Assembly: GCA_965659685.1 (NCBI GenBank)
Contig: CBFHXB010000011.1
Span: 8,595-72,594, forward strand
Reading direction: 5' to 3'
Length of the DNA: 64,000 nt
From: Candidatus Poseidoniaceae archaeon
GTDB taxonomy: Archaea; Thermoplasmatota; Poseidoniia; Poseidoniales; Poseidoniaceae
This document shows, piece by piece, positions 29,560-63,649 of this stretch. How positions within the stretch are numbered: position 1 is the stretch's first letter; the number at the start of each line of letters is the position of its first letter. The notes beneath the pieces were generated by a model, which saw only the letters and a program-made list of their open reading frames with translations, was not told where the DNA came from and made no database searches. Both the position numbers and the translations under genes were made by a program.

Positions 29560-29814
29560 TCACGACCAGCGCACGGGAAGGTCTGCGCGAAGTTTGGCCA
29601 GTTCCTCTCCAGAATAGAGCGGTCGACCTCCTTCTTTTACCGTGCTCTGAATGAGCCACAGCACGCCGTTCCAGGCGCTCCGTGTCGCGGTGATTTCGAC
29701 GTCTCCCCGGGCGGCAACGCCCATGAGTTCTGCTTCAACGGTGGTGGGGTCGAAGAGGGCTTTCACAAGGTGGCGGGTCTCAAAGGCCACCTGAGGTGGC
29801 TTCCAACTCATCAT
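29560..29814 (-). CDS. small hypothetical protein, last gene of the ParA-RHH cassette
   Basis: 84 aa from ATG 29814, or 87 aa from GTG 29823, which overlaps the RHH gene stop. High third-position GC. I recognise no family, and RelE/ParE signatures are not seen. Confidence 0.4.
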   Translation of the reverse strand: MMSWKPPQVAFETRHLVKALFDPTTVEAELMGVAARGDVEITATRSAWNGVLWLIQSTVKEGGRPLYSGEELAKLRADLPVRWS

Positions 29815-29819
29815 GGCGA

Positions 29820-30062
29820 TCACACCCTGAATGGAGCGAGGTTCAACCGCTCGACGAGGTGGTCCACGTCGACGTCCGCCGTTGCCTTCGCACGCTCGCG
29901 AAGCAACTCAAGGCTGCCGTCCATGCGCGCCATGCGTTGGTGGCGAATGAGGTCAAGCAGGACCTCATTCACGCTCTTGTATCCGCCAAGCGAGCGCAAC
30001 GTGTTCAATTGTCTTCGTACTTCGTAGCTCACGCTTACCGAGGTCATTCCCTTCGCTGTCAT
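29820..30062 (-). CDS. ribbon-helix-helix (RHH/CopG/Arc-type) DNA-binding protein
   Basis: 'TSVSVSYEVRRQLNTLRSLGGYKSVNEVLLDLIRHQ' matches the beta-strand, helix, helix pattern of RHH proteins. It is 80 aa and lies directly downstream of ParA copy 2. Confidence 0.55.
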   Translation of the reverse strand: MTAKGMTSVSVSYEVRRQLNTLRSLGGYKSVNEVLLDLIRHQRMARMDGSLELLRERAKATADVDVDHLVERLNLAPFRV

Positions 30063-30152
30063 CGTGCATCCCGTTGGTTGGTGCCCTCTATGCGCTACTT
30101 AAGGCGCGCGAGGCGGAATGCCCCTTGAGGGCGATTTCAGGACCCCTTGCGC

Positions 30153-31115
30153 TCAGCGGCGACCCTGCGCCTCAAGGGAGACCCTTGAGGGCTCACGGAC
30201 CCCGAATTCTCGACGCATGTCCTGCACGCGGCGGTGGAATTCGCGTGCCAAGGTCCAGTATTCCAGGGAGCCTGCTCCGGCTCCGGAGGACGTGGGTTTG
30301 TTGAGCAAGACGGTCGGTGCTCCGGACCACGGTGCCTCAGCCACGTTCACCAGACGTCGAATCGACGTGCTGAACAATTTGTTCGGGATGCTGAGGGCGA
30401 CTTGGTCGCACACGTGACGCGACAGTTTGGAGCGGGCGTCGACCATGGTCATCACGACGCCGAAAATCTTCAGGTTCCGGTTGATCCTTCGCTGGATCAT
30501 CTTGACCGAGTTCATCAGCATGCTGAATCCTTCCAAGGAGTAGTATTCCGCCTGAACGGGGACCATCACCCAATTTGCTGCGCTCAGGGCGTTGATGGAC
30601 AACAGTCCGAGGGAGGGGGGTGTGTCGATGACGATGTAGTCGAAGTGGTCGATGATGGGCGCCAACGCTTCCTTGAGGCGAGTCTCACGCCCGATCTTGT
30701 GGGAGAGTTCGATCTCCGCTCCGGAGAGGTGGATGTCGCTGGGAAGCAACCAGAGGTTCTCTGTGGTCAGGGTGGCGGGTGGACGGCCCTTCTCGTTGCG
30801 CAGCATCCATGCGTTCCGCATGGAGGCCGTCAGGTCCTCAGGACCGATCAGGTACTCGTCCATCAAGGGCAATTCCTCGCCGAGATCGTTGGTCAAGAGG
30901 TCGTACGCCGTCTTTTTGACGCGCTTCTTCTCGATGCCAAAGGACGTCGCGCAGTTCCCTTGCGGATCCAAATCGATGAGCAACACCTTCGCAGGAGGTA
31001 GCCCCATCTTCTGGTGACCGCGGGCCAGCGCCGCTGCAAGGTTGACCGCCGTGGTGGTCTTCGCGCAACCGCCCTTTTGGTTGGCGACCGCGATGACCAT
31101 CTTGTACGGGTCCAT
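30153..31115 (-). CDS. parA: ParA/Soj-family ATPase (copy 2)
   Basis: It has the deviant Walker A 'NQKGGCAKTTT', plus 'LIDLDPQGNCATSFG' and 'VIDTPPSLG'. A ~40-aa insertion follows the Walker A region, and the C-terminal tail is basic. Confidence 0.85.
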   Translation of the reverse strand: MDPYKMVIAVANQKGGCAKTTTAVNLAAALARGHQKMGLPPAKVLLIDLDPQGNCATSFGIEKKRVKKTAYDLLTNDLGEELPLMDEYLIGPEDLTASMRNAWMLRNEKGRPPATLTTENLWLLPSDIHLSGAEIELSHKIGRETRLKEALAPIIDHFDYIVIDTPPSLGLLSINALSAANWVMVPVQAEYYSLEGFSMLMNSVKMIQRRINRNLKIFGVVMTMVDARSKLSRHVCDQVALSIPNKLFSTSIRRLVNVAEAPWSGAPTVLLNKPTSSGAGAGSLEYWTLAREFHRRVQDMRREFGVREPSRVSLEAQGRR

Positions 31116-36463: not shown

Positions 36464-36537
36464 TGCGCGAGGCAGGACTCGAACCTGCGACCTCCCGGTT
36501 ATCAGCCGGGTGCTCCAACCGACTAAGCTACCCGCGC
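36464..36537 (-). tRNA. tRNA-Ile (anticodon GAU)
   Basis: I folded it by hand at 74 nt. The acceptor is GCGCGGG/CTCGCGC with one G-U pair. The D arm is GCTT...GAGC, the anticodon arm is CCCGG-CTGATAA-CCGGG, and the T arm is GCAGG-TTCGAGT-CCTGC. No CCA is encoded. Confidence 0.85.
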
Positions 36538-36588: not shown

Positions 36589-37182
36589 TCACTCAAATTC
36601 AGAGGCGTCCATTTCGTTGAGCGTGATGTAGGACGGCAACTGCATGGCCCGTTCAAAGGTGCGGCCAAGGACCACTTCATCGAGCCGATCACGGGTACGT
36701 GCGATGGCCGTGAGGGGAAGCCGGACGGTCTCTCCGAGCTCGAAACGCTGCTGGACGCCGACGCGAAGGGTGACGATGAATCCCTTGTAGGTGCGCTTGA
36801 CTTTCAGGAGGCCGGTGATGATGCCGACTTCGTTGCCCTGGTTGTCCAAGACCGCACGGTCGAGCATTTCGTCGGGTGCGTAGAGCTGTTCGTCGATGCG
36901 CACGGTGTTGCGCCAGCGACGCTGGAGTTCGCGCATGGACTTGGAGAGGCGTACGGAGCCGTCGTCGTTGATGCTGTGAACAAGCTCCTTGGGAAGGGGT
37001 GCAAATTCAGCAGGCTTGCGCATGAATTCGCCCGCCACGTCCGTTTCGACCAGAAGGCGAACGGATCGCACACGTGATTCGTTGGGGTGGTGACGTTCCC
37101 CGATGATGGTGCCCACTTTGGTGTCCTTGACGTACACGTCGCGTTGCATCAATTCCTGGATGTGGTAGTCTGTTGGTGCCAT
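36589..37182 (-). CDS. PRC-barrel-domain protein
   Basis: Two PRC-barrel-like segments are present ('VYVKDTKVGTIIGERHH...' and 'LDRAVLDNQGNEVGIITGLLKVKRTYKGFIVTL'). The family call is from memory of the fold's sequence pattern. Confidence 0.5.
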   Translation of the reverse strand: MAPTDYHIQELMQRDVYVKDTKVGTIIGERHHPNESRVRSVRLLVETDVAGEFMRKPAEFAPLPKELVHSINDDGSVRLSKSMRELQRRWRNTVRIDEQLYAPDEMLDRAVLDNQGNEVGIITGLLKVKRTYKGFIVTLRVGVQQRFELGETVRLPLTAIARTRDRLDEVVLGRTFERAMQLPSYITLNEMDASEFE

Positions 37183-37250: not shown

Positions 37251-37268
37251 GTTCAATTAGGAATACGC
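37251..37268 (+). repeat. CAATT-core element copy (GTTCAATTAGGAATACGC)
   Basis: It is identical to 39461-39477 (GTTCAATTGGAATACGC) apart from one inserted A. Confidence 0.65.
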
Positions 37269-37282
37269 AGTTAGTGACGAAG

Positions 37283-37299
37283 AATCAATTGGAAATCGC
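37283..37299 (+). repeat. CAATTGGAA element copy (AATCAATTGGAAATCGC)
   Basis: It has the exact CAATTGGAA core with the WWCGC flank shared with the copies at 37492, 39464 and 44151(-). Confidence 0.65.
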
Positions 37300-37366
37300 C
37301 GATAATCGGCATGTCGCATAATCCATTTCCATAAGTAAATCGCGGCATCTTTCATTTCTGAACGAG

Positions 37367-37381
37367 GTGAAATTCCAATTG
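37367..37381 (-). repeat. CAATTGGAA element copy (minus strand CAATTGGAATTTCAC)
   Basis: The core is exact. The flank GGAATTTCAC resembles the 53.7-kb copy (TAATTGGAATTCAC). Confidence 0.6.
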
Positions 37382-37487
37382 GGCTTTCCTCATTCTTCAC
37401 CACGCGTAGGCGGGCCCGTCCGATCGGTGCCGGGGTGGGGTCGCCTGGCCGGTAGATTTCGACCTAATAATCGATAGTTTAAGCGAA

Positions 37488-37505
37488 TTTTCAATTGGAA
37501 AACGG
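37488..37505 (+). repeat. CAATTGGAA element copy (TTTTCAATTGGAAAACGG)
   Basis: The core is exact, with the flank GGAAAACG as in the ubiD copy. It lies ~70 nt upstream of ATG 37564. Confidence 0.65.
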
Positions 37506-37563
37506 CATATTTCGTTTTTCGTCATGTCGGCGAACTCATAGAGGCGGGCGAAGGTGGACGGGC

Positions 37564-38253
37564 ATGGCCGCCGTGGACCTGCGTGGACTTCATCCGCGCT
37601 TTTCCGCGACCGTGATGCTCCATGCAGCCCGCAAAGGCCACCCTGTTGCTGGCGTAACGGAGGCCGCCAGGCAACTTGCCCGGGTGCGTGACCCACTGGG
37701 TTTGTCTTCGCTCATTGAGGAAGAGGATGCCACTGCACGTTTGTCCGGTCCAGGGGACGGGTCCCGTTTCGAAGTGGAGCGAGACGGGCGCGTGCTGCAG
37801 GTGTGCCCCATCGACGTGATTCCTACGCTCACGGCAAGTTTCTGGCCCGATCTCTTGCTTGATGCTGATGCGAGGGCCGGTTGGTGGGTGGCCGAGCATG
37901 ACCTTGTCGAGGCTCTGTTGAGCCTCGCAGCACACCCGGTGCCAGAAGGACGCCTCGTCCTCAGCGGTCGGAGGCGTTGGCAGGCCACTGAGTTGATGCA
38001 CGAGGCCGCCCTCCTGCACCGACGCTGGGAGCAAGGGCAAGTCGGTGCCTTCTCGGTCGAGGTGTTGGCTGAACCTCAGCGTCCACCTGTCCGGGTTGAA
38101 CCCGTTGAATTGGACGATCAGGAGCCAGATCTCGGACCTTTGCACCGTCTCTTGTCTGAGCACCGTTCAGAGGGTTGGCGCCCCCAGATGACGGTGCGTG
38201 AAGCCTTGATGCACCATCTGGCCCTGGTAGAGGGAGCACTCAACCGCGGGTGA
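37564..38253 (+). CDS. hypothetical protein
   Basis: 229 aa from ATG 37564, with high third-position GC. I recognise no motif. The 3' end overlaps the dys stop by 14 nt (convergent genes). Confidence 0.4.
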   Translation: MAAVDLRGLHPRFSATVMLHAARKGHPVAGVTEAARQLARVRDPLGLSSLIEEEDATARLSGPGDGSRFEVERDGRVLQVCPIDVIPTLTASFWPDLLLDADARAGWWVAEHDLVEALLSLAAHPVPEGRLVLSGRRRWQATELMHEAALLHRRWEQGQVGAFSVEVLAEPQRPPVRVEPVELDDQEPDLGPLHRLLSEHRSEGWRPQMTVREALMHHLALVEGALNRG

Positions 38254-39247
38254 ACAAATCTGCACCGAGGAGCGGAAGCAGCACACTGGCATCTCCCTCG
38301 ACACAGACGTTCGGAGCTTCAGGTCGCATTTTGCCCCAGGAAATGGCTTCACGGAGCCGTGCTCCTGACAGGGAACCGTCGTGTTCAGGAGCCGTCGTGA
38401 TGTACACGGCAGCGTCAAGTCCGCCTCGGTATTGGTTCCACCAAATCACGTGATGCTTGGAAATTCCACCACCGACCATCAGGGCGTTTGAGGTCTCCAC
38501 GTCCCAGGTCAGGTCGCTCATGACCTGCTCGTCGGCCAAGGTGTCGATGTGGAAGTCCCGGTACTTCTGCCGGAACATGAACAATTGAGCTCCAATGGAT
38601 CCATCGGTGATGCCAGGGATGCAGACGGGGATGCGGTGCTTGGCCGCCCAATAGATCAGCGAATCTTCCGTACCGATTCGTTCACCCAAGGCCCACACCA
38701 AGTGGATGGAGCCGAAGCCGAGCCATGCGTCTGCTCCGGTCAAGCCGGTCTGCTCAAGCCGCTCCTTGCGGATGTCCTCGAGCGCAGGCATGACCACAGA
38801 TTCGATGATCTCACCGTACGAGGAGGTTGGGACGATGACGTTGCCCAAGCGCATCAGATCGTGCTCACCAAGCTCGATGTCGTCCAATTCGAAGGCGCCG
38901 TGGTAATACGCTGCATGCGCTCGCGCGATGTCATGATCGAGCGTACCGCAGGTCGTTGAGACCACGTTGAACATCTTCCTGCGCAAGGCTTCCACGAAGA
39001 ATCCGCGGGTTCCGGTCGCGCACAAGCATGCGGGGAAGGACAGCCAGTTCAGCATCTGTGCTGGGTCGTGATCGGCTTCGCTCAAGGCATGGTCCATGTC
39101 GCGAAGGATGTCTCGCGCCATCGCCAGTTTCGTGGCCGTGAAGCCGCCTGCTGAGGCCATTTGGTCGAGCAGCCCCTTCGGTGAGGTGGCGTTCGAAAAG
39201 TCGTAATCGACCACGGGCACGTCGAACTGGTCTGGGTCAATGGCCAT
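38240..39247 (-). CDS. dys: deoxyhypusine synthase
   Basis: The full length resembles DHS ('GFTATKLAMARDIL', 'TTCGTLDHD', 'GGGISKHHVIWWNQ'). Starts at 39247 (preferred), 39292 or GTG 39304 are all possible. Confidence 0.85.
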   Translation of the reverse strand: MAIDPDQFDVPVVDYDFSNATSPKGLLDQMASAGGFTATKLAMARDILRDMDHALSEADHDPAQMLNWLSFPACLCATGTRGFFVEALRRKMFNVVSTTCGTLDHDIARAHAAYYHGAFELDDIELGEHDLMRLGNVIVPTSSYGEIIESVVMPALEDIRKERLEQTGLTGADAWLGFGSIHLVWALGERIGTEDSLIYWAAKHRIPVCIPGITDGSIGAQLFMFRQKYRDFHIDTLADEQVMSDLTWDVETSNALMVGGGISKHHVIWWNQYRGGLDAAVYITTAPEHDGSLSGARLREAISWGKMRPEAPNVCVEGDASVLLPLLGADLFTRG

Positions 39248-39272
39248 GTTTCGGCCTCGACTGTGCTCGTTT

Positions 39273-41693
39273 TCAATCAATCCCTGCGCCATCGAGCCGG
39301 TCACGGATCGTCATCAACCGGTCACGGAGCCGAGCGGCCTCTTCGAAATCAAGGGCCCGTGCAGCGTCTTCCATCGCTGCTTTGAATTCAGCGGCCAGGT
39401 CGACCAAGGCTTCCTTTGAGGTGGGAAAATCTTCGTCATGTTCCAATTGAGAAATTGAATGTTCAATTGGAATACGCTGGTCACTGTCCGCCGTGTTGTT
39501 GCTTGGCAAAAAGGCCGCAGCAGGGCCGTCTGCACGCCCACCACGCTTCGCCACCAAACGTTTCCCACCACGGGAAGTGGTGGTGCCTTCGAGGAGGCCC
39601 TCTGATTCTTGGCCCATTTGTGGAAGGGCCTTGACGATGGTGCGGGGTACAATGCCACGCCGTTCGTTGTCCTCGTGTTGCCGCTGGCGACGTTCCAAGG
39701 TTTGGCGGATGGCTCCGGTCATGGCAGGCGAAACGCTGTCGGCGTAGAGAAGGACGGATCCGTTGGCGTTTCGCGCAGCACGCCCGATGGTTTGCAAGAG
39801 CGATCGCTCGTTGCGAAGGAAGCCCTGACGGTCCGCGTCGAAAATCGCCACCAAGCTGACCTCAGGAATGTCCAATCCCTCTCGGAGCAGGTTGATGCCG
39901 ACAATGACGTCAATGAGGCCCAAGCGCAACGCGTTGATGATCTCGGTGCGTTCGATGGTGTCGATTTCCGAGTGGAGGTGGTGCGCCTTCACGCCCATTC
40001 GGCTGAGGTATGCGGCGACCTCTTCGGCGAATTTGATCGTCAGGACGGTCACCAAGGTCCGCTCCCCACGGTCGATTCTGGCGTTGATTTCTGAGAGCAA
40101 GTCGGCCACTTGCCCTTCAGTGGGTCGAACTTCAATGCCCGGATCCAACAAGCCCGTCGGTCGAATTTCCATGCGTGGCAAGTGGTCAATCGTTTGCAGC
40201 ATTTCGTACATCGACGGCGAGCCCTGGATTTTCTTGGCCACGTCCGCGGGCCCAGCGCCGCCCCTGGAAGCGACGTGAAGCAGGCCTTCAGGCACCGGTT
40301 GACCGGTCACCTCACACAGGTGCCGCAATTCGCGCTCGCCCGGTGTTGCAGAGACGTAGACCATTTGCGGGACAAGGCCTTGGAATTCTGGAATTTTCAG
40401 CGGCCGGTTGTCCGCGGCCGAAGGCAATCGGAAGCCGTGCTCAATGAGGTTCTCTTTGCGTGCCCTGTCCCCGTGGTACATGCCTCCTACTTGCGGGAGG
40501 GTCACGTGCGACTCGTCCATGATGACCAGGAAACGGGTGGGGTCGCCATGGAATTGACGCGCGCAGGCCGCAAAGAAGTCGAGCAAACAATACGGTCGTT
40601 CGCCTGCTTCACGGCCGTCGAAATGCCGTGAATAATTCTCGATGGCCAAACAGTGTCCGACTTCCCGCAGCATCTCAAGGTCGTACTCTGTGCGTTGTTC
40701 CAAGCGATGGCGCTTCACCTGCTCTTTCGTTCCGTCGAAGTACCGCAGCCGGTCGTTCAGTTCGCTTTCAATCCGCTCAAGCGCGATTTCGAACCGCTCC
40801 GGGCTGGTCATGAAGAACTCCTTCGGGTGAATCCAAGCCTCTTCCAAGGCGTCGAGCACCTCCCAACTGACCGGATCGCACACGGAGACGGCGATGACGC
40901 CATCGAAGTCGAATCGAATGCGAAGTGGATCGTCGCGGCTCGGCATCCATACGTCAAGCACTTCGCCACGCAAGCGGGCTTGGCCGCGTTCGAGGTCGGT
41001 GTTGGTGCGGGCGTACTGCAGCCCGACCAAAGCCCGCATCAAGTCCTGCGGTTCGATGGCCTGGCCCACGTGCACCCTGAGGTGGTGCTCCAGGAAGGTT
41101 TCGGGCGGATTGAGGCCGTAAATGCACGACACGGAGGAGACGATGACACAATCTGGGCGTGAGACCAAACTTGCGACTGCGGAGAAGCGCTCCTGTTCGA
41201 TTCGCTCGTTGATGGAGAGCTCCTTGTCGATGTACAGGTCTCGCTTGGGCAGGTAGGCTTCGGGTTGGTAGTAGTCGTAGTGTGAAACGAAGTATTCAAC
41301 GGCGTTTTCAGGGAAATAGCCGGCAATCTCGTGGTGCAATTGCCGAGCAAGCGTCTTGTTGTGCGAGATGATCAACGTTGGGAGGTTGAGCCGTTCGATG
41401 ACGTTGGCCATGGCGAAGGTCTTGCCTGAGCCGGTCACGCCAAGCAGCACACAGCGCTCTTGCCCTCCCTCGATTTGCTGCACGAGTTGTTCGATTGCTT
41501 CGGGTTGATCGCCCGCCGGTGCATGTTCGGAATGAAGGCGAAAGCGGCTCACGTCAGGACTCAGGTGTTCCAACGAAGCGCCTTCGAGCGCTCGTGAGAG
41601 GTCAAAGGGGTCCCGTTCCTGAAGGTCCACCTCGCCCACGTCGAGGTTGGCACGGGCCTCGAAGGACCCGTCGTCGTCCCATTCGTCGACCAC
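39273..41693 (-). CDS. uvrB: excinuclease ABC subunit B (UvrB), extended
   Basis: 'GVTGSGKT', 'DESH', 'QTIGRAARN' and the C-terminal UVR motif 'LDFEEAARLRDRL' are present. It starts at a GTG. The 806 aa includes a ~45-aa acidic N-terminal extension and a longer pre-UVR linker. Confidence 0.92.
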   Translation of the reverse strand: MVDEWDDDGSFEARANLDVGEVDLQERDPFDLSRALEGASLEHLSPDVSRFRLHSEHAPAGDQPEAIEQLVQQIEGGQERCVLLGVTGSGKTFAMANVIERLNLPTLIISHNKTLARQLHHEIAGYFPENAVEYFVSHYDYYQPEAYLPKRDLYIDKELSINERIEQERFSAVASLVSRPDCVIVSSVSCIYGLNPPETFLEHHLRVHVGQAIEPQDLMRALVGLQYARTNTDLERGQARLRGEVLDVWMPSRDDPLRIRFDFDGVIAVSVCDPVSWEVLDALEEAWIHPKEFFMTSPERFEIALERIESELNDRLRYFDGTKEQVKRHRLEQRTEYDLEMLREVGHCLAIENYSRHFDGREAGERPYCLLDFFAACARQFHGDPTRFLVIMDESHVTLPQVGGMYHGDRARKENLIEHGFRLPSAADNRPLKIPEFQGLVPQMVYVSATPGERELRHLCEVTGQPVPEGLLHVASRGGAGPADVAKKIQGSPSMYEMLQTIDHLPRMEIRPTGLLDPGIEVRPTEGQVADLLSEINARIDRGERTLVTVLTIKFAEEVAAYLSRMGVKAHHLHSEIDTIERTEIINALRLGLIDVIVGINLLREGLDIPEVSLVAIFDADRQGFLRNERSLLQTIGRAARNANGSVLLYADSVSPAMTGAIRQTLERRQRQHEDNERRGIVPRTIVKALPQMGQESEGLLEGTTTSRGGKRLVAKRGGRADGPAAAFLPSNNTADSDQRIPIEHSISQLEHDEDFPTSKEALVDLAAEFKAAMEDAARALDFEEAARLRDRLMTIRDRLDGAGID
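39441..39477. repeat. dual-core CAATTG element inside uvrB (TTCCAATTGAGAAATTGAATGTTCAATTGGAATACGC)
   Basis: There are two CAATTG cores at 39444 and 39464, 20 bp apart. The outer arms TTCCAATTGA / TCAATTGGAA are inverted repeats. This AT-rich patch lies in GC-rich coding DNA, in the linker before the UVR domain. Confidence 0.7.
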
Positions 41694-41734
41694 GCTTCAT
41701 GGCGGTCGGGCGCCGGTTTGAACCCTTGTGGGGT

Positions 41735-42466
41735 TCAGGGAAGGTACAGCCCACCGTTCACGTGGAGCACGGCACCGGTCATGTAGGCGCTGTCGTCGCC
41801 GATGAGGAAGGACACCGCTCCCGCCATGTCTTCGGGAGAACCAAGGCGACGCAAGGGCACTTCCGCCTCGCGTGTTTCACGCTTCTGGGGGGTATCGGCG
41901 GCGAGCAGGTCCGTGTCGACGTAGCCAGGTGCAAGCACGTTGACACGTTGCCCTCTCGGACCCGCTTCTTGGGCGAGCGAGCGTGCCCATGCTTGCAGGG
42001 CTGCTTTGGACGCGCTGTAATCGGCGCCATGCGGGGACCCTCGTGTGCCAAGTTGTGAGCCGACCACGACGATTCGGGCGCCGTCGGAAAGATGGGGTTG
42101 AACCGCCGCCCAGACGAGGAAGGCGCCACGGAAATTCACGTTCATGGTCCGATCCAGTTGTGCGAGGTCGAGGTCACTGGCCGGAACCCGGTCGTACCTT
42201 CCATGGTTCAACACCAAGGCCTGCACGGTGCGGGCCATCCACGGGTGGCTGGCCAGCAAGGCCACTTCGTCCTCTGCTGCACAATCGATCTTGACCGCCA
42301 AGGCATCACCACCCGATTCTCGGATGGCGTCAACGACAAACTCGGCCGGACGGGACGACGTCGTGTAGGTGAGCAGGACGTCGAATCCATCCTTTGCCAA
42401 CCGCTTACAGACCGCTGCACCGATGCCGCGGCCTCCACCAGTGACCAAGGCCACGGGGCGGCTCAC
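41735..42466 (-). CDS. short-chain dehydrogenase/reductase (FabG-like)
   Basis: 'TGGGRGIG' and the catalytic 'YSASK' are present. The GTG start overlaps the upstream stop (GTGA). Confidence 0.8.
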   Translation of the reverse strand: MSRPVALVTGGGRGIGAAVCKRLAKDGFDVLLTYTTSSRPAEFVVDAIRESGGDALAVKIDCAAEDEVALLASHPWMARTVQALVLNHGRYDRVPASDLDLAQLDRTMNVNFRGAFLVWAAVQPHLSDGARIVVVGSQLGTRGSPHGADYSASKAALQAWARSLAQEAGPRGQRVNVLAPGYVDTDLLAADTPQKRETREAEVPLRRLGSPEDMAGAVSFLIGDDSAYMTGAVLHVNGGLYLP

Positions 42467-42861
42467 GCCTGTTCCTCCGTGTGCTTGGAGAGGATGGCCC
42501 CAAGTTCGGGGGGCGTCCAGCCTTCGGGCTTCATGACTTTCCCGTCCTCTCTGCGGAGGACCTTTCCGTCCACCAGTTTGGCCATGTTCGAACGATGGAC
42601 TTCGGCGAAGGCCTCGTCGTAGAGGTGATGCAGGCCGTGGTTGATGACCGAGCCCGCGAGGATGTAGCCGATGTCCGCCAGCGCGTCGAGGACTTCGACC
42701 AAATCACCGTCTGCCAAGGCTTGGGCGTATTCCTCCACTTCTTCACGCAGGAGCTTGACGCGCAGTTCGGCCAAGTCCTCCGGGCCAAGTCCTGGCGCGT
42801 CCAACTTCGGGATCTCGAAGGCCTGATTGAACTCCAGCAGGGCCGTCAGCATCGGATTCAT
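42463..42861 (-). CDS. MazG/PRA-PH-like all-alpha nucleotide pyrophosphohydrolase
   Basis: 'LRVKLLREEVEEYAQALADGDLVEVLDALADIGYILAG' is the EExxE/D metal-binding helix pattern. The start is trimmed to ATG 42861. Confidence 0.6.
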   Translation of the reverse strand: MNPMLTALLEFNQAFEIPKLDAPGLGPEDLAELRVKLLREEVEEYAQALADGDLVEVLDALADIGYILAGSVINHGLHHLYDEAFAEVHRSNMAKLVDGKVLRREDGKVMKPEGWTPPELGAILSKHTEEQA

Positions 42862-42913
42862 GCGTCGAAGCGTGACCTTGCAGCACTTGAGCAATCCGCT
42901 CCAGAGGTTCACC

Positions 42914-43891
42914 TCAATCCAGGCAAGACCCATCGCACGGCGGCTCGGTCGCATAAGCCACGGCAAGCGCGGCGAGCAACACCCAACCGGTCAGCATGGA
43001 GACGCGGAACAGCACCGTTTGAAAATCGCCGAAACGCTTCATCCGCAGCACGACGATGACGTTGGCCAGCGCCATCACGCCCGCCGCCGCGAGGAACCAG
43101 ATGCTGTCCACCGGGTCGGCGAACGCAAAGCAAGCAAACCACAACAGCGAGAGTTGGACCGTGGTTCGCGTCGTCGCACGCTCATCGAAACGTGCCGGGA
43201 AGGAGTGGATGCCTTGCGCTTTGTCGCTCTCCATGTCCATGCGGGCGTAGTTGATGTCAAAGGCCGCGATCCAAAGGGCCACGCCGAGGGAGATGGGAAG
43301 GACACTGGGCGCCCAGAGGAATTCGGTCCGTGTGGAAAACATGCCCGTGATGGCGGCCCAACCGTGCACATCGGCCGCCACCGCAACCCACGCGCCTGCA
43401 GGGGCCAAACCCAAGCACAGCCCGAGCCAAAAGTGGCACAGCCACGTGAAGCGCTTCATGTATGGATACACGACGAAGGTCAGGACGGGCAGCCAGGCCA
43501 TCATCAGCGCCACGCGGTTGAGCAGACCTGCGCTGACGAGCAACATGACCAGGAAGCCTGCAGCCAACGACCATGCGGTCCTCATGCTCATGCTTCCTGA
43601 GGCGAGGTGGCGTCCTTGCGTGCGAGGGTTGGCGGCGTCAATGTCCCGGTCAATGATGCGGTTGAGGGCCATGGCCAAGCCTCGGGCGCCGACCGCTGCA
43701 AACAGAATCCAGAGCAGGTCGATGCCAGGTTCGACGTTGAATTGCATCACGGCAACGAGGTAACCGATCAGCACGAAGGGAAGGGAAAACAGGGTGTGCT
43801 CGACTTTGACGAACTCGAGCACGCTGCGGACGTCGATGTCAGGCCCCTCCGTCGGGGAAGCGCAAGTGCGGCGGCCATGAATGGTTCGCAA
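42914..43891 (-). CDS. ubiA: UbiA-family aromatic prenyltransferase
   Basis: 'NRIIDRDIDAANPRT' is present and the protein is polytopic. With the 43891 start it overlaps the ubiD 3' end by 53 nt, so the true start is uncertain. Confidence 0.8.
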   Translation of the reverse strand: MRTIHGRRTCASPTEGPDIDVRSVLEFVKVEHTLFSLPFVLIGYLVAVMQFNVEPGIDLLWILFAAVGARGLAMALNRIIDRDIDAANPRTQGRHLASGSMSMRTAWSLAAGFLVMLLVSAGLLNRVALMMAWLPVLTFVVYPYMKRFTWLCHFWLGLCLGLAPAGAWVAVAADVHGWAAITGMFSTRTEFLWAPSVLPISLGVALWIAAFDINYARMDMESDKAQGIHSFPARFDERATTRTTVQLSLLWFACFAFADPVDSIWFLAAAGVMALANVIVVLRMKRFGDFQTVLFRVSMLTGWVLLAALAVAYATEPPCDGSCLD

Positions 43892-45800
43892 GTTCGGGAT
43901 GGGCGGCCACCTTTTCCAAGGTCTCAGGGCTGTGCAAGGTCACGGCAGGCCATCGGCGCACGCCATGAGCCTCTGAAGGAATCGGCGTGGTGGCGTCCCA
44001 GCAAAGGCGTGCTTTCGCTGCATCAAAGCTGAGGCCACGCCCCACGTCAAAGCGGCAAAAGAACTGCCACAGCATCCTTCGTCGTGCTTTCGAGCCGTGC
44101 AAGTCAAGGTCGTCATCCGTGACGATAAGCCAACGCAATTCCTTTGCGTTTTCCAATTGCCAAATTTGATTTCTCAATTGGTGAATCTTTTCTTGTCGGG
44201 CCTGCTCAAGCGCATCGCCCTCCGACGTGACGTCCGACCCGGTTCGCGCTGAGGGGCGGCCTTCGATGGACACGCTCACCACGAGCATGCTGCTGCGCAG
44301 CAGCCGTGCGTCTTCGACACCGTCGAGCGCGAGCACGGCGCCGAGGTCGTCCCCGGACCAGCCTGGGGCCTCGCCTTCTCCACGCCGCCAGTCAGGGGTG
44401 TCCTGACGGAAGGAACCGAGCAACGGCGAGTCCGAGGAGCGCGGATCCGAACGTGGGATGGAGGTCGCATCGATGATGACCTTGTCGTGGACGTTCTCGT
44501 ACGGGCTTGCCGCTTCGAGCGCGTCCGCCACCATGCCTTCGAGGACCAGCACGTCCTCCGAGGGATCCACCTTGTCGTTGAGGTCGTCAAGGAAGCCTTC
44601 GAGGTCCTTGGGGTCTCGGTCCGGGTCGACCACGACCATGGATTTCAGGAACATCATCTGGCCCGCGCCCATCAGTCCAAGTGCGGTCTTGCGTCCTTGG
44701 CGGGCGTAGCGTTGCTTTGACGCGACGATGGCAAGGTTGTGGAAACCGGTCTCCAACGGCAGATGAACGCTGACCACGTCACGGTGCTGGAAGCGAAGAA
44801 CGGGACTGAACTGACGTCCGATGGCCTCGCCGAGGAAACCGTCCTCCATCGGCGGCAACCCGACGATGGTGGCGGGGAGCATGGCGTCCTTTCGGCGCGT
44901 CACGGCGGTCACGTTCAGCACCGGGTAATGTCCGGTCAAGGAGTAGAACCCGTAGTGATCGCCGAAGGGGCCTTCCACGCGTAAGTCGGTGGGGTCCGTC
45001 CATCCTTCGATGACGATGTCGGCCTCGGCAGGGACCCAGAGGTCTTGCGTCGCCGCTTTGGTCAACGGCAGCCGGCGACGCCCGAGGATGCCAGCAAACT
45101 GGTATTCAGACAGGTTGTCAGGCAGCGGAGAAATCGCCGAGAAAATGAGTTCCGGCGGGCCTCCCAGACAGATGGCGACGGGCATGCGCACACCGGCTGC
45201 TGCGTGGTCTGCGCCATGCTTGTGGACCTGCCAGTGCAACCCTGCTTCCTTTGGTCCAAAAATTTGCGACCGGTACATGCCGAGGTTGTGCTCGCCGCTC
45301 GCGAGGTCGCGCGTCACCACCAAGGGGAGGGTGATGTACGGCCCTCCGTCCATGGGCCACGTCGTCGGGATGGGCAGTTTGGTGAGGTCAGGGTCTCTGT
45401 CAACGATGCGCTGAACGCTCCCTCGTCGCTTGCGCTTCGGGGCGAAGGCCAGGGCGTCCATCGCCAAAGGCAAGGCTTCCCACGGTCGCTTGAGGTAACG
45501 CGGCACGTCAGGCTTCATCATCGCCACCATGCGATCGCCGATGGCCGTCTCCGTCTCGACACCGAGCGCGCGAAGGGTGCGGTCCTCGCTGCCGAAGAGG
45601 TTCATCACCAGAGGAATGTCACTGATGCTGCCGTCAGCCAAGCGGGGTTGCTCGAAGATGACCGCAGGGCCGTCGTTCTTCACCAGGAGGTCAGCGATGG
45701 CGCCGGCCTCGTACACGACGTCGACGGGACGAGGGATGCGCAGCACCTCGCCACGGCTGTCGAGGTGGTCGACCCACCGCTTGAGCGTCCTCCATGCCAC
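43839..45800 (-). CDS. ubiD: UbiD-family (prenyl-FMN-dependent) decarboxylase with a ~150-aa internal insertion
   Basis: The N-terminus 'LKRWVDHLDSRGEVLRIPRPVDVVYEAGAIADL' and the C-terminal 'LIVTDDDLDLHG...MLWQFFCRFDVGRGL' resemble UbiD. It is 653 aa, against ~490-500 aa typical (from memory). Confidence 0.8.
   Translation of the reverse strand: MAWRTLKRWVDHLDSRGEVLRIPRPVDVVYEAGAIADLLVKNDGPAVIFEQPRLADGSISDIPLVMNLFGSEDRTLRALGVETETAIGDRMVAMMKPDVPRYLKRPWEALPLAMDALAFAPKRKRRGSVQRIVDRDPDLTKLPIPTTWPMDGGPYITLPLVVTRDLASGEHNLGMYRSQIFGPKEAGLHWQVHKHGADHAAAGVRMPVAICLGGPPELIFSAISPLPDNLSEYQFAGILGRRRLPLTKAATQDLWVPAEADIVIEGWTDPTDLRVEGPFGDHYGFYSLTGHYPVLNVTAVTRRKDAMLPATIVGLPPMEDGFLGEAIGRQFSPVLRFQHRDVVSVHLPLETGFHNLAIVASKQRYARQGRKTALGLMGAGQMMFLKSMVVVDPDRDPKDLEGFLDDLNDKVDPSEDVLVLEGMVADALEAASPYENVHDKVIIDATSIPRSDPRSSDSPLLGSFRQDTPDWRRGEGEAPGWSGDDLGAVLALDGVEDARLLRSSMLVVSVSIEGRPSARTGSDVTSEGDALEQARQEKIHQLRNQIWQLENAKELRWLIVTDDDLDLHGSKARRRMLWQFFCRFDVGRGLSFDAAKARLCWDATTPIPSEAHGVRRWPAVTLHSPETLEKVAAHPELANHSWPPHLRFPDGGA
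44146..44181 (-). repeat. dual-core CAATTG element inside ubiD (minus strand CCAATTGAGAAATCAAATTTGGCAATTGGAAAACGC)
   Basis: The cores at 44154 and 44175 are 21 bp apart. The minus strand aligns with the plus strand of 39443-39477 at roughly 80% identity: 13/13 at the left, 13/14 at the right, with a divergent spacer. Confidence 0.7.
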
Positions 45801-45826
45801 GTCGGCTTGTCTGTGGTTTTGCCTTT

Positions 45827-45844
45827 GGACCTTCGTGAAGGTCC
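45827..45844. promoter_or_regulatory. 18-bp palindrome GGACCTTC-GT-GAAGGTCC in the ubiD/GGR divergent intergenic region
   Basis: The 8-nt arms are perfect. It is centred in the ~70-bp spacer between the ubiD start (45800) and the reductase start (45870), so it is a candidate operator. Confidence 0.45.
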
Positions 45845-45869
45845 ATGCCTTGGGGCAGACGGACCATTG

Positions 45870-47138
45870 ATGGACTCTGTCCGCTCAAGTCATGCCATGG
45901 GAGAGGGCTCCGCCGTCGACGTGGACCTCGTGGTCATCGGCGCAGGTCCGGGCGGCGGCTCCGCAGCGTTGCACGCTTCCCGGCTCGGCTTGTCCGTGAT
46001 GGTGCTGGAGGCTGACCCTGAGATCGGTACCCCCGTTCATTGTGGCGAATGCCTGTCGCATCTCGCGACCGAGCAACTCGAACTCGACCTGCCTGAGCAC
46101 GTCATCGCTTTGACCGTGGACGGCGTCCGCGTCATCTTCCCTGACGGCACGGCAAAGCTCCTGACCGAACCGGGTTACGTGCTCGAAAAGCACCTGTTTG
46201 AACGATGGATCATGGAACAAGCCGAAGGGCGCGGTGCGGACGTTCATCTCGGGCATCGCGTCACCAAAATGGAGCGAGAGTACAACAGCGAAAATCAATT
46301 TTCCAATTGGCTTATCGAAGGTCGGGGGGATGCATTTCCTCTTCGTTGCCGTGGCGTCATCGACGCCTCGGGTGTGCACGGAGCCGCCTCCAAAATCCTC
46401 GGGATGCCGGGAGAAGTTGAGGTCATTGCTGGCTTCCAATACGAACTCAACGACGTGCCCAACGTCGGCTACCTCGATTTCTACATCCAGCCGGAGTATG
46501 CCCCTCATGGTTACGTGTGGATGATTCCAAAGGAAGGCGAACGCGCCAACGTCGGTTTGGTCACCACGGACAAGAAAGGGGCCATCAAGTACCTCGATCA
46601 ATTCATCGAGGACACCTACCTCAACGGCAAGCCTCACGTCAATCCACCTTGGCGAAAAGAGGGCATCAAGGTGAGGCCCTTCGGCGGGACCATTCCGATT
46701 TCTGGCCCACGTCCAAGCACCGTGGAAGACGGCTTGTTGTTGGTCGGCGACGCCGCAGGATTCACGTCCCCCCTCTTCGAAGGCGGCACTCACCTTGCAC
46801 TTTGGTCGGGCCGAGCCGCTGCGGAGACGTTCGCCGAGGCCATCGCCGCTGGGGCGCCCACCAAGGCCAGCCTCGCCGGCTACCAACGTCGATGGAAAGG
46901 GGCCTTCCCACCGTACCACAAGATCCTGCGAGGGAAGACGGCCCTCTACGACCTCAGCGACGAGGAGATGTCGGTCATGGCTCGATGCCTCCCTGAGGAA
47001 CTCGGATCCATGTCGGCCATGCAGAAGTTGGGCATCGGCCTGAAGATCCTCGTCAAGCGGCCGGCGTTGTTGACCAAGCGCGTCATTTCGGTGCTCCTTT
47101 CCTTTGGGTATTCGCGGGCCAAGCACTTCGGTTGGTGA
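45870..47138 (+). CDS. geranylgeranyl reductase family FAD-dependent oxidoreductase
   Basis: 'DLVVIGAGPGGGSAA' (FAD binding), 'GDAAGFTSPLFEGG' and 'HGYVWMIPK' are present. The start is ATG 45870 or 45897. The track start 45045 is an antisense run through ubiD. Confidence 0.8.
   Translation: MDSVRSSHAMGEGSAVDVDLVVIGAGPGGGSAALHASRLGLSVMVLEADPEIGTPVHCGECLSHLATEQLELDLPEHVIALTVDGVRVIFPDGTAKLLTEPGYVLEKHLFERWIMEQAEGRGADVHLGHRVTKMEREYNSENQFSNWLIEGRGDAFPLRCRGVIDASGVHGAASKILGMPGEVEVIAGFQYELNDVPNVGYLDFYIQPEYAPHGYVWMIPKEGERANVGLVTTDKKGAIKYLDQFIEDTYLNGKPHVNPPWRKEGIKVRPFGGTIPISGPRPSTVEDGLLLVGDAAGFTSPLFEGGTHLALWSGRAAAETFAEAIAAGAPTKASLAGYQRRWKGAFPPYHKILRGKTALYDLSDEEMSVMARCLPEELGSMSAMQKLGIGLKILVKRPALLTKRVISVLLSFGYSRAKHFGW
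46291..46310 (-). repeat. CAATTGGAA element copy inside the reductase gene (plus AAAATCAATTTTCCAATTGG)
   Basis: It has the exact core on the minus strand. The plus-strand 20-mer matches 63483-63502 (AAAATCAATTTTCTAATTGG) at 19/20. Confidence 0.65.
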
Positions 47139-52079: not shown

Positions 52080-53690
52080 ATGGACCGTCTTCCGAGCCGT
52101 TTTTCGCCCAACTCCGAGGAGGCCACCGCACGTCGTGAAGCCAACCTCGCGTTGATCGAGGACCTTCGTGCTCGATTGGACCAGGTCAGGGCCGGTGGAA
52201 GTCCACGAGCCGTGGAGCGGCATCGTGCTCGGGACAAGATGCTCCCACGCGAACGCATTGAGGCCATCATCGACCCAGGCACGGCTTTCCTCGAGACCTC
52301 CCCGTTGGCGGCCGATGGGCTCTACAACGACGGTGCGCCGAGTGCTGGAATCGTGACCGGCATCGGTGTCGTTCACGGGCGTGAATGCCTCTTTGTAGCC
52401 AACGACGCCACCGTGAAAGGAGGTTCATACTTCCCAATGACCGTCAAGAAGCACATCCGTGCTCAGGTCATCGCCCATGAGAATCACCTGCCGTGCATTT
52501 ACCTGGTCGACTCAGGCGGGGCCTTCTTGCCCATGCAGGACGAGGTCTTCCCAGACATCGGCCATTTCGGACGGATTTTCCGAAACCAAGCGCGGATGTC
52601 GGCCGACGGCATCCCGCAGGTCGCCGCCGTGCTCGGTTCCTGCACCGCCGGTGGAGCCTACGTCCCGGCCATGTCCGACGAATCGATCATCGTCAAGGGC
52701 AACGGGACCATTTTCCTCGCCGGTCCTCCGCTGGTCAAAGCCGCGACGGGCGAAGAGGTGTCGGCCGAAGACCTCGGTGGGGCTGACGTGCACACCGCCA
52801 CCTCGGGCGTGGCCGATCATTTCGCAGAAAACGAGCAAGAAGCCCTTCGTAAAGTGCGGAACGTCATCGAGAACTTGGGGCCACGGACCTTGGCGCCGGC
52901 TGCCGGTGCGGCACCGGAAGACCCGCATTACGACCCAGAAGAACTGCTCTCCATTGTCCCCGAAGACAACCGGACGCCCATCGATGTGCGGGAACTGATC
53001 GCTCGCATGGTGGACGGTTCACGCTTCCACGAATTCAAGCCCCGCTACGGCACGACCTTGGTCTGTGGCTTTGCCCGTATTCACGGGCACCTTGTGGGCA
53101 TCGTCGCCAACAACGGAATCCTCTTTTCCGAATCAAGCCTGAAAGGCGCGCACTTCGTGCAATTGTGCGGTCAACGGCAGGTGCCCTTGGTGTTCCTCCA
53201 GAACATCACCGGCTTCATGGTCGGGCGGGAATACGAAGCAGGCGGCATCGCCAAGGACGGAGCCAAACTCGTGACGGCGGTCTCCTGCGTTGACGTTCCC
53301 AAGTTCACCGTCATCGTCGGCGGCAGCCACGGTGCAGGCAACTACGGCATGTGCGGAAGGGCCTACGACCCCCGCTTCCTCTTCATGTGGCCGAACGCTC
53401 GCATCTCGGTGATGGGCGGGCCGCAGGCGGCCGATGTGTTGACGACAATCAAGCAGGACCAGCGCGCACGCGAGGGCAGCGATCCGATGACCGAAGATGA
53501 AGTCGAAGCCTACCGTGCTCCCATTCTAGAAAAGTACGAGGAAGAGGGTTCGCCCTACTACTCCACCGCTCGGCTGTGGGACGATGGCGTCATCGATCCA
53601 CGCGATACCCGTGACGTGCTCGGCCTCTGCTTGGCCGCGGCACGAAACGCACCCGCGCCTCAGAAGGGGTATGGAATTTTCAGAATGTGA
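52080..53690 (+). CDS. acyl-CoA carboxylase carboxyltransferase (beta) subunit, methylcrotonyl-CoA carboxylase-like
   Basis: It has full-length carboxyltransferase architecture. The N-terminus '[40 protein letters not shown]' is typical of MccB. The enoyl-CoA hydratase next door supports a leucine-catabolic role. Confidence 0.85.
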
Positions 53691-53722
53691 ATTCCAATTA
53701 AAAATTCAAAAATCCAATTGAG
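53691..53722 (-). repeat. dual-core element variant in the promoter gap before the hydratase gene
   Basis: The sequence is ATTCCAATTAAAAATTCAAAAATCCAATTGAG. Cores CAATTA 53695 and CAATTG 53715 are 20 bp apart. The minus strand reads CAATTGGAT...TAATTGGAAT. Confidence 0.6.
53698..53705 (+). promoter_or_regulatory. TATA-like box TTAAAAAT for the hydratase / biotin carboxylase genes
   Basis: It sits 26-33 nt upstream of ATG 53731 inside a 40-bp AT-rich gap. This geometry fits a leaderless or near-leaderless archaeal transcript. Confidence 0.45.
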
Positions 53723-53730
53723 GTTTTCCC

Positions 53731-54588
53731 ATGAACGTCCCGGCTTGTGAACATCTTCATCTCGAGGTTGAAGGTGCCGTTCTGACCATTGGGTTGAACC
53801 GAGAATCGGTGTACAACGCCCTCAACACCGCGATGATCACCGAACTGTGCGAGGTCTTCGATTGGAGCGCTTCTCGAAGCGCAGGACCTGCAGGTGCGCT
53901 CGAGGATGAGGACGGCCCACTGTTCCGACTGGTCGTGCTTCACGGCTTGGGCAAGCACTTCTGCGCTGGCGCAGACATCAACATGATGCGAGACGCGGGG
54001 GCGAAAACCCCCGAGGAGAACCGCGAGGACAGCGCTCGGTTGGACCGCTTGTTCAACGGACTCTGGTCCCATCCCTGCTACACGATTGCCGTGCTTCACG
54101 GCGTGGCCCTCGGCGGCGGAGCCGGGCTCATTTCTGCCTGCGATCACGTGGTGGCGGTCGAAGGTGCACGCATCGCCCTCTCCGAAGGAAAGCTCGGCAT
54201 CCTCCCCGCCGTCATTGGCCCGTACGTCTACCGGCGTGTCGGCAGTGCAGCCTTCCGAAGGCTGGCCATGAACGCGGGGCGCGTCGGCACCGACGAAGCA
54301 CAGCGCATCGGCCTCATCGAAGACGTGGTCCAGGATCACGACGCAGCGTGGGCCACCGTCGCCGGTGTGGTGGCCGAAGTCATGACCACCGGACCTTCCG
54401 CCGTGACCGCGGCGAAGGAACTCACCCTCGGCTTTGACCGATGGACCGGTGACGACCAAGCCTTGCGCACCTGGACCCTTGATTTCACCAGCCGCATGCG
54501 TGGCTCCGACGAAGGCCAAGAGGGCTTGTCGGCCTTCTTGGAAAAGCGCCCACAAGCCTGGCGACCAAGCGATGGAGGCCCCGAGTGA
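53731..54588 (+). CDS. enoyl-CoA hydratase/isomerase family (methylglutaconyl-CoA hydratase-like)
   Basis: The crotonase signatures 'GKHFCAGADINMM' and 'LHGVALGGGAGLISACD' are present. Confidence 0.85.
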   Translation: MNVPACEHLHLEVEGAVLTIGLNRESVYNALNTAMITELCEVFDWSASRSAGPAGALEDEDGPLFRLVVLHGLGKHFCAGADINMMRDAGAKTPEENREDSARLDRLFNGLWSHPCYTIAVLHGVALGGGAGLISACDHVVAVEGARIALSEGKLGILPAVIGPYVYRRVGSAAFRRLAMNAGRVGTDEAQRIGLIEDVVQDHDAAWATVAGVVAEVMTTGPSAVTAAKELTLGFDRWTGDDQALRTWTLDFTSRMRGSDEGQEGLSAFLEKRPQAWRPSDGGPE

Positions 54589-63466: not shown

Positions 63467-63503
63467 CAATTTTTCAATTACAAAATCAATTTTCTAATTG
63501 GAG
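63467..63503 (+). repeat. multi-core CAATT element variant in the divergent intergenic region
   Basis: The sequence is CAATTTTTCAATTACAAAATCAATTTTCTAATTGGAG. The cores are CAATTA 63475, CAATTT 63487 and TAATTG 63495, with the outer pair 20 bp apart. Confidence 0.6.
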
Positions 63504-63649
63504 TTCTTCATCTGCCGTGCCAACATCACACCTCCGGCAGGTGATGGCTCCCCTGTCCTCCGTTTTTCAGAAATTCATGACCTCTGAAGGTTCGCGTTCT
63601 GAATTGGATTGCGAAAACCGCCTCCAAGGGCCGTTCGACGGGAAACATC

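Follow-up and report, generated by a model that had tools for sequence, protein, structure and literature searches.

CAATTG boxes kept at the same genomic slots across Poseidoniales: palindromic, helically phased and putative docking sites for a DNA-binding protein

Families of short DNA boxes recognized by proteins have been described in several forms. The ARG boxes of ArgR and the sites of the Lrp/AsnC "feast/famine" regulators are AT-rich palindromes spaced by two or three turns of the helix along one DNA face. Origin recognition boxes, or ORBs, and also mini-ORBs are dyads with TTCC...GGAA/GAA arms in an AT-rich setting, with several copies in one long non-coding region. The parS, Noc and matS sites are conserved even palindromes of 14–16 bp that lie inside as well as between genes, in tens to hundreds per chromosome and with a regional bias. 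Repetitive extragenic palindromes (REP), bacterial interspersed mosaic elements (BIME) and DNA uptake sequences (DUS/USS) are short repeats found after stop codons, in convergent gaps and in permissive coding segments. Features of all four kinds recur in the family of boxes built on the hexamer CAATTG that is analyzed here, starting from a window of 64,000 nucleotides of a Candidatus Poseidoniaceae archaeon (contig CBFHXB010000011.1, positions 8,595 to 72,594). A full-text literature search found no description of a CAATTG motif or of any cis-acting element of Poseidoniales. The family is of a known kind, that of protein-recognition boxes; what is new is this particular box, its dual-coding slots throughout the order and the fact that viruses carry it.

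The exact 9-mer CAATTGGAA occurs seven times in the window, whereas 100 dinucleotide shuffles averaged 0.49 copies and reached 2 at most, and 25 matches were found with one mismatch allowed where 11.6 were expected. A preliminary description of this DNA had listed the seven sites, with coordinates and strands that are all correct, and its expectation of approximately 0.2 is of the same order of magnitude as the shuffle mean. The near-copies that it gave at 37254 (CAATTAGGAA), 53692, 53712 and 63495 are also present. A position weight matrix trained solely on the boxes of other species yielded 12 matches of at least 12 bits, spanning 37.28–63.49 kb, versus 0–3 in shuffles (about 0.5 expected). 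In a blind search, eight 30-bp stretches of at least 70% A + T were found in the 64 kb, all eight containing a box. No such stretch lies before 37.2 kb of the window, and the absence of copies from the first 37 kb was also correctly seen. The boxes of the window are as follows.

37251..37269, plus strand: degenerate box TTCAATTAGGAATACGC with one extra base, 32 bp from the following box and directly upstream of the TATA-like TTACATTAT of the minus-strand 197-aa gene
37280..37297: box AAGAATCAATTGGAAATC, CAATTG at 37286-37291, 17.3 bits, in the 380-bp non-coding region between the divergent 197-aa gene (minus) and 229-aa gene (plus)
37370..37387: box AAATTCCAATTGGGCTTT, CAATTG at 37376-37381, 20.1 bits
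37486..37503: box AATTTTCAATTGGAAAAC, CAATTG at 37492-37497, 26.7 bits, the top-scoring box of the window, approximately 65 nt upstream of the 229-aa gene
39438..39475, gene on the minus strand: uvrB linker pair TTCCAATTG-N14-CAATTGGAA, 20 bp apart
44148..44186, gene on the minus strand: ubiD pair TTCCAATTG-N15-CAATTGGTG, 21 bp apart, encoding HQLRNQIWQLEN
46296..46315, gene on the plus strand: half box CAATTT (46296-46301) and full box CAATTG (46304-46309) in the geranylgeranyl reductase gene
53689..53726: hydratase-gap pair, CAATTA (53695-53700) and CAATTG (53715-53720), 20 bp apart
63469..63506: three degenerate boxes, CAATTA (63475), CAATTT (63487) and TAATTG (63495), in the divergent region between ttuA (minus) and a 103-aa gene (plus)

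The coding locations had likewise been recognized: two boxes lie in the uvrB linker, two in the C-terminal extension of ubiD, and one and a half in the reductase gene. The uvrB linker pair encodes the peptide IPIEHSISQLE and lies approximately 200 nt upstream of the deoxyhypusine synthase start, and the half and full boxes of the reductase gene, offset by 8 bp, encode NQFSNW. Because E. coli UbiD aligns only to residues 3–447 of the 653 residues, leaving approximately 190 at the C-terminus, the ubiD boxes are placed in a lineage-specific extension. The hydratase-gap pair fills the 40-nt interval that separates the stop of the carboxyltransferase gene (53690) from the start of the enoyl-CoA hydratase gene (53731).

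The unit of the family is a palindromic box, T-T-(C/T)-C-A-A-T-T-G-(G/A)-A-A, with A/T-rich flanks, and the matrix consensus is ATTTTTCAATTGAAAAAT. The flank GGAA-W-W-CG(C), earlier regarded as shared by several copies, is not conserved beyond close relatives, and across the order the flanks are just A/T-rich. Distances between hexamers were determined in 80 loci obtained by a deoxyhypusine synthase scan of species-representative genomes, all of which are labelled Poseidoniales or Marine Group II (MGII) and have 40–62% GC. They were 20 bp (n = 111), 21 bp (n = 38), 32 bp (n = 17) and 33 bp (n = 29), with one case each at 22 and 23 bp and none at 13–19 bp. The spacings of 20–21 and 32–33 bp are two or three helical turns. 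The pairs of the window fall into the same classes (20 bp in uvrB and before the hydratase gene, 21 bp in ubiD and 32 bp beside the 197-aa gene), and orthologous 32-bp pairs ending in CAATTGaacagttacattatc are present in five other loci (L007–L011). An additional offset form with a distance of 8 bp, TCAATTTTC(C/T)AATTGG, is seen in the reductase gene and the ttuA region. A palindrome combined with phased, cooperating sites is what characterizes the operator family of a dimeric factor, and the box and its spacings show both.

A lack of conservation at orthologous positions in relatives had been named as an outcome that would speak against binding sites; instead, the same slots are occupied across Poseidoniales. 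The shared coding slots are the C-terminal part of ubiD, the uvrB N-terminus (peptide AIEKLISQLEN), the uvrB linker before the UVR domain and the reductase loop, and the shared intergenic slots are the region of the NAD-like and 197-aa genes and the gap before the enoyl-CoA hydratase gene. In 65 of 75 species two or more boxes occur in the uvrB linker, and both boxes of the uvrB N-terminus are present in 48 of 62. Slot occupancy, for uvrB, the reductase and others, spans genomes of 40–62% GC and both families of the order. Some slots are restricted to clades, such as the one between the NDK and aIF5B genes (NDK|aIF5B) and that of the uvrB N-terminus.

A pattern scan of metagenome contigs returned many chance matches and about 29 MGII-like contigs. 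In independent contigs of 33–62% GC the hydratase, ttuA, NAD-like/197-aa and aIF5B slots are repeated, and recurrent positions also include NDK|aIF5B, the gap before the carboxyltransferase gene and the region upstream of the NAD-like gene. The divergent slot between ttuA and a roadblock-like gene is the counterpart of the 63.5-kb element of the window. The hydratase-gap element ends 9–11 nt before the ATG in genomes of 41–62% GC. Further coding slots were seen in an SDR gene and in a 255-aa open reading frame (ORF), and several convergent gaps are filled entirely by the element, at 0–8 nt from both stop codons (L125, L151 and L162/L192). Separately, L143 and L181 share, immediately ahead of the ttuA start, an almost unchanged stretch of approximately 50 nt, catcaaacatgcggtgaactcaaaccctag(a/t)ggtgcacgcaagcacacATG, which may be a conserved 5′ leader.

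In this small sample the distinct slots number approximately seven coding, five in tandem gaps, three in convergent gaps and two in divergent gaps. The boxes are strongly enriched in non-coding DNA, with no visible preference for promoter-bearing gaps. Their density is approximately one locus per 10–15 kb (46 clusters in 208 kb, 29 of them having entered the sample through the search itself). The single local cluster of 9 kb from which the analysis started was therefore too narrow a view of a family that extends across the order and into viruses.

Selection targets the nucleic acid and not the encoded peptide. In uvrB genes with a G + C content at third codon positions (GC3) of 0.65–0.75, the GC3 of the 11 box codons is 0.09–0.27, versus 0.57–0.75 in the flanking 60 codons. 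The uvrB clade with 20-bp spacing reads its two hexamers in different frames (SIEnSNSQL; S-I-E ... Q-L), and the clade with 21-bp spacing reads them in the same frame (QPIEELNYSIE; P-I-E ... S-I-E); the hexamers are identical between the clades although the peptide differs. In the reductase, the residue before Asn-Trp can be S, T, I, L or V, and its codon ends in C wherever CAATTG is intact. The uvrB N-terminal boxes are missing from two clades, the high-GC clade of the window itself and a clade of 46–48% GC, which keep the peptide AIE..L..Q(L/I)E through other codons, for example GCAATCGAACAACTCGTGCAGCAAATCGAG in the window, and these two clades are a natural control for selection at the DNA level. 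An origin of the boxes by chance or as a codon artefact is ruled out by the shuffles, the GC3 contrast and the frame switch between clades, and it is also contradicted by the invariant third-position C of the reductase and by the occurrence of the same uvrB peptide without boxes.

Viruses, presumably of Poseidoniales hosts, keep the same boxes, since archaeal-virus-like contigs hold a conserved cluster of three. A family of IMG/VR contigs (L243, L256, L266, L271, L277 and L284 with approximately 49% GC and L273 with 44%) carries three CAATTGGAAA boxes with spacings of 20 bp and then approximately 26–27 bp, in the gap directly after a PriL-like primase gene. The replication module around them encodes PolB, a PAPS-reductase-like protein, a PD-(D/E)XK nuclease, a DNA methyltransferase and an ERCC4-HhH protein, and the closest relative of the PolB was that of Halorubrum tailed virus 27 (24% identity). 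An additional contig (L142) combines a box pair with a strong PHROG match and a Cas4-like gene. The matches of the first viral scan were mostly chance hits in AT-rich phages and were set aside.

The order-wide conservation at the level of the nucleic acid, the palindromic unit and the helical phasing, together with the retention of the same genomic spots even in coding genes and the viral carriage, make it very probable that a sequence-specific DNA-binding protein docks at the boxes. This was the core inference of the preliminary description, and it is strongly supported. We estimate a probability of roughly 0.5 that the boxes serve one conserved dimeric and cooperative binder, either a global regulator or an architectural, nucleoid-associated factor, which is the best fit among the four candidates put forward at the outset. 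We infer protein binding, a dimer or tetramer stoichiometry and a regulatory or architectural role. Each palindrome of 12–16 bp, comprising the unit and its A/T-rich flanks, would take one dimer, and boxes 20–21 or 32–33 bp apart would be bound cooperatively on one face of AT-rich, probably bent, DNA. There is one box locus per approximately 10–15 kb, with a flexible exact place within its neighbourhood (a gap after a stop codon, a divergent promoter region or a permissive coding linker). The boxes would then be placed wherever they are tolerated, because they would be needed in particular chromosomal neighbourhoods rather than at exact promoter positions. Such flexibility makes action on the neighbourhood most likely, possibly as an operator, roadblock or insulator at transcription-unit boundaries, and a classical single-promoter operator less likely. 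The viral boxes would presumably plug into the same host protein.

Parallels to such a binder are ArgR and Lrp/AsnC, which the boxes resemble in their two- or three-turn phasing and also in number, with approximately 100–200 loci per genome if the spacing of 10–15 kb holds across a genome of approximately 2 Mb. One slot precedes a cluster of the leucine-catabolism type (carboxyltransferase, enoyl-CoA hydratase and biotin carboxylase). In sequence, the box matches neither the ARG box nor the Lrp consensus, which has an odd centre, and, unlike the sites of these regulators, many boxes lie in convergent gaps or deep in coding sequence with no regulator gene linked.

Several observations weigh against one such binder. 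The placement of the box relative to the TATA sequence is inconsistent among genes and lineages. At the NAD-like and 197-aa genes the boxes lie upstream of TATA-like sequences at a lineage-dependent distance, so no single fixed promoter-element geometry exists. A fixed geometry to the start codon is seen at the hydratase and aIF5B genes, whereas seven slots are coding and approximately three of the 11 distinct intergenic slots are convergent; the latter are unexpected for a regulator of promoters and would suit an architectural or terminator role better. In this species the loci are spread unevenly: of six in approximately 83 kb, four are crowded into 9 kb, and the 46.5 kb to the left have none. 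As a sign of clustering this spread is weak (a gap argument gives a P of roughly 0.05), and it could point to a regional, macrodomain-type function. No transcription-factor gene lies beside any box cluster, and the binder was not found in Pfam and PDB searches with the 131-, 80-, 84-, 103- and 713-aa proteins of the region, which returned a SAP domain only.

Exact protein matches locate the window on Tara Oceans contigs and on MAG GCA_002170075.2. The following genes surround the boxes of the window.

36589-37182, minus: 197-aa gene, no Pfam match
about 37564-38253, plus: 229-aa gene, no Pfam match
38240-39247, minus: deoxyhypusine synthase
39273-41693, minus: uvrB
to 45800, minus: ubiA and ubiD
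43839-45800, minus: ubiD, 653 aa, overlapping ubiA by approximately 50 nt
about 45900-47138, plus: geranylgeranyl reductase
52080-53690, plus: carboxyltransferase
53731-54588, plus: enoyl-CoA hydratase
62449-63417, minus: ttuA
63680-63991, plus: 103-aa gene, with roadblock/LC7-like orthologues by sequence; the window copy has no Pfam match

The 197- and 229-aa genes, neighbours of the densest cluster, were considered as genes of DNA-binding proteins and rejected, their products instead resembling by eye a PRC-barrel-like and an NAD-binding-like protein, respectively. The non-coding region between them also holds a second repeat, ATTATGCGAC (37313..37322, minus). This repeat, (A)ATTAT(A/G)CGAC(A), occurs almost only in the 197-aa/NAD-like non-coding region, always on the same strand and in 2–3 copies per species, two of them 58–59 bp apart and one between a box pair (the copies of L050 lie at 13397, 13690 and 13749), and it could be a TATA-like promoter array or the site of another protein. 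A very GC-rich block of approximately 55 bp, cgcgtaggcgggcccgtccgatcggtgccggggtggggtcgcctggccgg, lies at 37400-37450 in the middle of the same region and is absent from the regions of low-GC relatives that were inspected. Between the 197-aa gene and a PRPP synthetase gene lies a tRNA gene (36464-36537, minus; 71.7 bits). The left 46 kb of the region contain no CAATTG box; they include a 2160-aa ORF (13742-20224, plus) followed by ORFs of 947, 839 and 800 aa, the last two of which encode products without a Pfam domain. Approximately 5–7 kb upstream of the window start, a gene of the phage-integrase family, possibly XerA-like, lies beside a gene for a small HhH protein (L288, 3036-4772), and an AT-rich patch without a box is found near it (L288, 1557-1587).

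More tentatively, and doubtful as it stands, the boxes may be an anchor or a centromere- or ORB-like cis-element of an MGII-specific chromosome-organizing system with an Orc1-2-type or SAP/ParA-coupled reader; coding genes would have borne a dual constraint for as long as the order has existed, and viruses would copy the boxes to hijack replication or segregation. The two families of sites to which this idea refers can be compared with the boxes separately.

That the boxes are ORB-like sites of an Orc1/Cdc6-family protein, with the dense cluster as a replication origin or with an Orc1-2-type paralogue as a global regulator, seems unlikely to us, although it has precedents. In Pyrococcus, TTCC and GAA are invariant in ORBs and mini-ORBs (approximately 13 bp, e.g. 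TTCCAGTGGAACT), a conserved cluster of ORBs bound by Cdc6 lies within the coding gene dp1, and scattered mini-ORBs are also documented. Orc1-2 of S. islandicus (Saccharolobus) is a global regulator of the DNA-damage response that binds ANTTTC in promoters, and a paralogue of the Orc1-2 cluster is present in MGII. Both the TTCC and the GAA core are found in the box, there are two box pairs in uvrB, a non-coding region of 380–500 bp holds 4–6 boxes together with the second repeat, and the viral cluster adjoins primase and PolB genes. However, the separation of the cores is five bases instead of four (TTCC-AATTG-GAA versus TTCC-AGTG-GAA), and the box is an even, perfect palindrome. The boxes are dispersed over the order at conserved non-origin slots, often as phased pairs at 20/21 or 32/33 bp, rather than forming inverted arrays around an unwinding element, and the four-box region at 37.25–37.5 kb is GC-rich at its centre. 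Gene calls covering 9.3 kb before the window up to +74 kb (83 kb) include no orc1/cdc6 gene, and a Walker-A screen of every fetched locus returned only UvrB and unrelated ATPases. For the ORB-like candidate of the preliminary description, the core sequence and the precedents leave some probability, but the gene context does not support it.

A similarly low probability is assigned to centromere-like or nucleoid-organizing sites of the parS, Noc-binding site (Noc-NBS) or matS type, read by an adaptor of one of two ParA systems of the window. The box is an even palindrome of 16 bp, and its half-site TTTTCCAA resembles the parS half-site TGTTCCAC; against the 16-bp parS palindrome TGTTNCACGTGAAACA, which is clustered near the origin, it matches at 12 of 16 positions. 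As for parS, the sites are conserved in coding and non-coding DNA alike; the boxes also show no preference for promoter gaps and are unevenly and regionally distributed. The viruses carry one cluster each, like the centromeres of plasmid-like prophages, and the two parA operons of the window lack a recognizable centromere-binding protein. Possible adaptors would be the SAP-domain protein, the 131-aa protein and the 80-aa protein that resembles ribbon-helix-helix (RHH) proteins. Against this, Pfam detected no ParB/Srx or helix-turn-helix (HTH) domain in the ParA-associated proteins tested, and homologues of Noc or MatP were likewise not detected. Boxes are absent for 35 kb around the SAP-ParA operon and for 6 kb around the other parA operon, a density of approximately one per 10–15 kb exceeds that of parS, phased pairs are foreign to parS, and the central dinucleotide is AT in the boxes but CG in the known sites. 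The parS/SegB-like sites suggested earlier retain some probability, with the lack of a recognizable ParB counting against them.

The first of the two parA operons (35-2105, plus, with its upstream part at L288 7857-11406) encodes a 713-aa protein with a SAP DNA-binding domain at the N-terminus, a 337-aa ParA/MipZ-like ATPase and a 131-aa protein. The latter starts with MSERGLGRGLDHLI (GLGRGLDHLI peptide), which resembles the N-terminal peptide with which ParB stimulates ParA, but it contains neither a ParB nor an HTH domain and belongs to an apparently MGII-restricted family without a known domain. The second partition-like operon (29560-31115, minus) consists of genes for a ParA-like ATPase of 320 aa, a protein of 80 aa whose N-terminus (TSVSVSYEVRRQL...) is RHH-like, and a protein of 84 aa; neither of the two small proteins had a Pfam match.

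It is considerably less probable that the box itself is a basal transcription signal, namely a symmetric bidirectional promoter in which a TATA sequence is flanked by TFB recognition elements (BRE-TATA-BRE-like), or a T-tract terminator that punctuates operons. The spacer GAAAA-T..AA..T-TTTTC does resemble BRE plus TATA from either side, T4–T5 tracts are present on both strands, gaps right after stop codons are filled, and the hydratase and aIF5B elements end 9–18 nt before the start codon. At these two genes, however, Shine-Dalgarno-like sequences (GGAG, GAGG or GGAGG) directly follow the second box, so the mRNA must start further upstream, at a site that the boxes would either flank or come after. 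The canonical promoters inspected in the same genomes (TTTATAT of L7Ae and GAGTATAWAG of the orthologue of the 197-aa gene) have no CAATTG. Promoters would make no sense in convergent gaps, nor would terminators within uvrB, ubiD and the reductase gene, and neither TBP binding nor a T-tract would require a strict CAATTG.

Still more improbable is a selfish or uptake-type repeat, that is, a REP/BIME-like element, an element resembling a miniature inverted-repeat transposable element (MITE) or a DNA uptake sequence that spread into permissive sites. The positions after stop codons and between convergent genes, the copies in permissive protein segments, the two pairs in a DNA-repair gene, and the clade-limited slots NDK|aIF5B and uvrB N-terminus would all be expected of such a repeat. 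In contrast to REP/BIME and DUS/USS, the boxes are far fewer, at only approximately one locus per 10–15 kb. They are conserved slot by slot over the order, with identical slots kept across genomes of 40–62% GC and in both families. Each box is palindromic with a fixed helical spacing that is unexpected for hairpin-type repeats, and mobility or competence genes are lacking. No terminal repeats or target duplications were noticed on reading the sequences, and neither a transposase nor a RAYT is listed in the region's gene tables (−9.3 to +74 kb). Relics of a very small mobile element, as once proposed, are disfavoured because the slots are orthologous and conserved.

At the RNA level, predicted hairpins were weak and varied from −4.6 to −14 kcal/mol (z-scores +0.45 to −2.75), the conserved hydratase pair remained unfolded, and mutated hexamers (CAATTA, TAATTG) showed no compensating change in the partner box. 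The only Rfam match was the tRNA at 36464-36537, with none at the boxes, which together with the inconsistent folding rules out a known RNA family. In the locus of the reference MG-II genome (L050), one pair is placed upstream of GAGTATATAG, the canonical TATA of the orthologue of the 197-aa gene, and 375 nt from the other gene, and is therefore probably not transcribed. Hence, although two palindromes could pair (free energies of −6 to −14 kcal/mol) and several copies lie inside operon transcripts, a hairpin or a site for an RNA-binding protein within mRNAs is hardly credible, given the inconsistent stability, the copies upstream of promoters, and the occurrence of boxes on either strand relative to transcription.

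Among the archaea of the surface ocean, Poseidoniales rank with the most abundant, and to our knowledge they have never been cultured. The CAATTG box, present across the order in defined slots, imposed against codon bias and shared with viruses, offers a short and recognizable experimental handle on them. It is also a clean natural example of a constraint at the DNA level that shapes protein-coding sequence, and it might serve as a marker for assigning MGII viruses to their hosts. Should the binder prove to be a ParA-coupled protein or a paralogue of Orc1, replication or segregation in this uncultured lineage would become accessible through the boxes.

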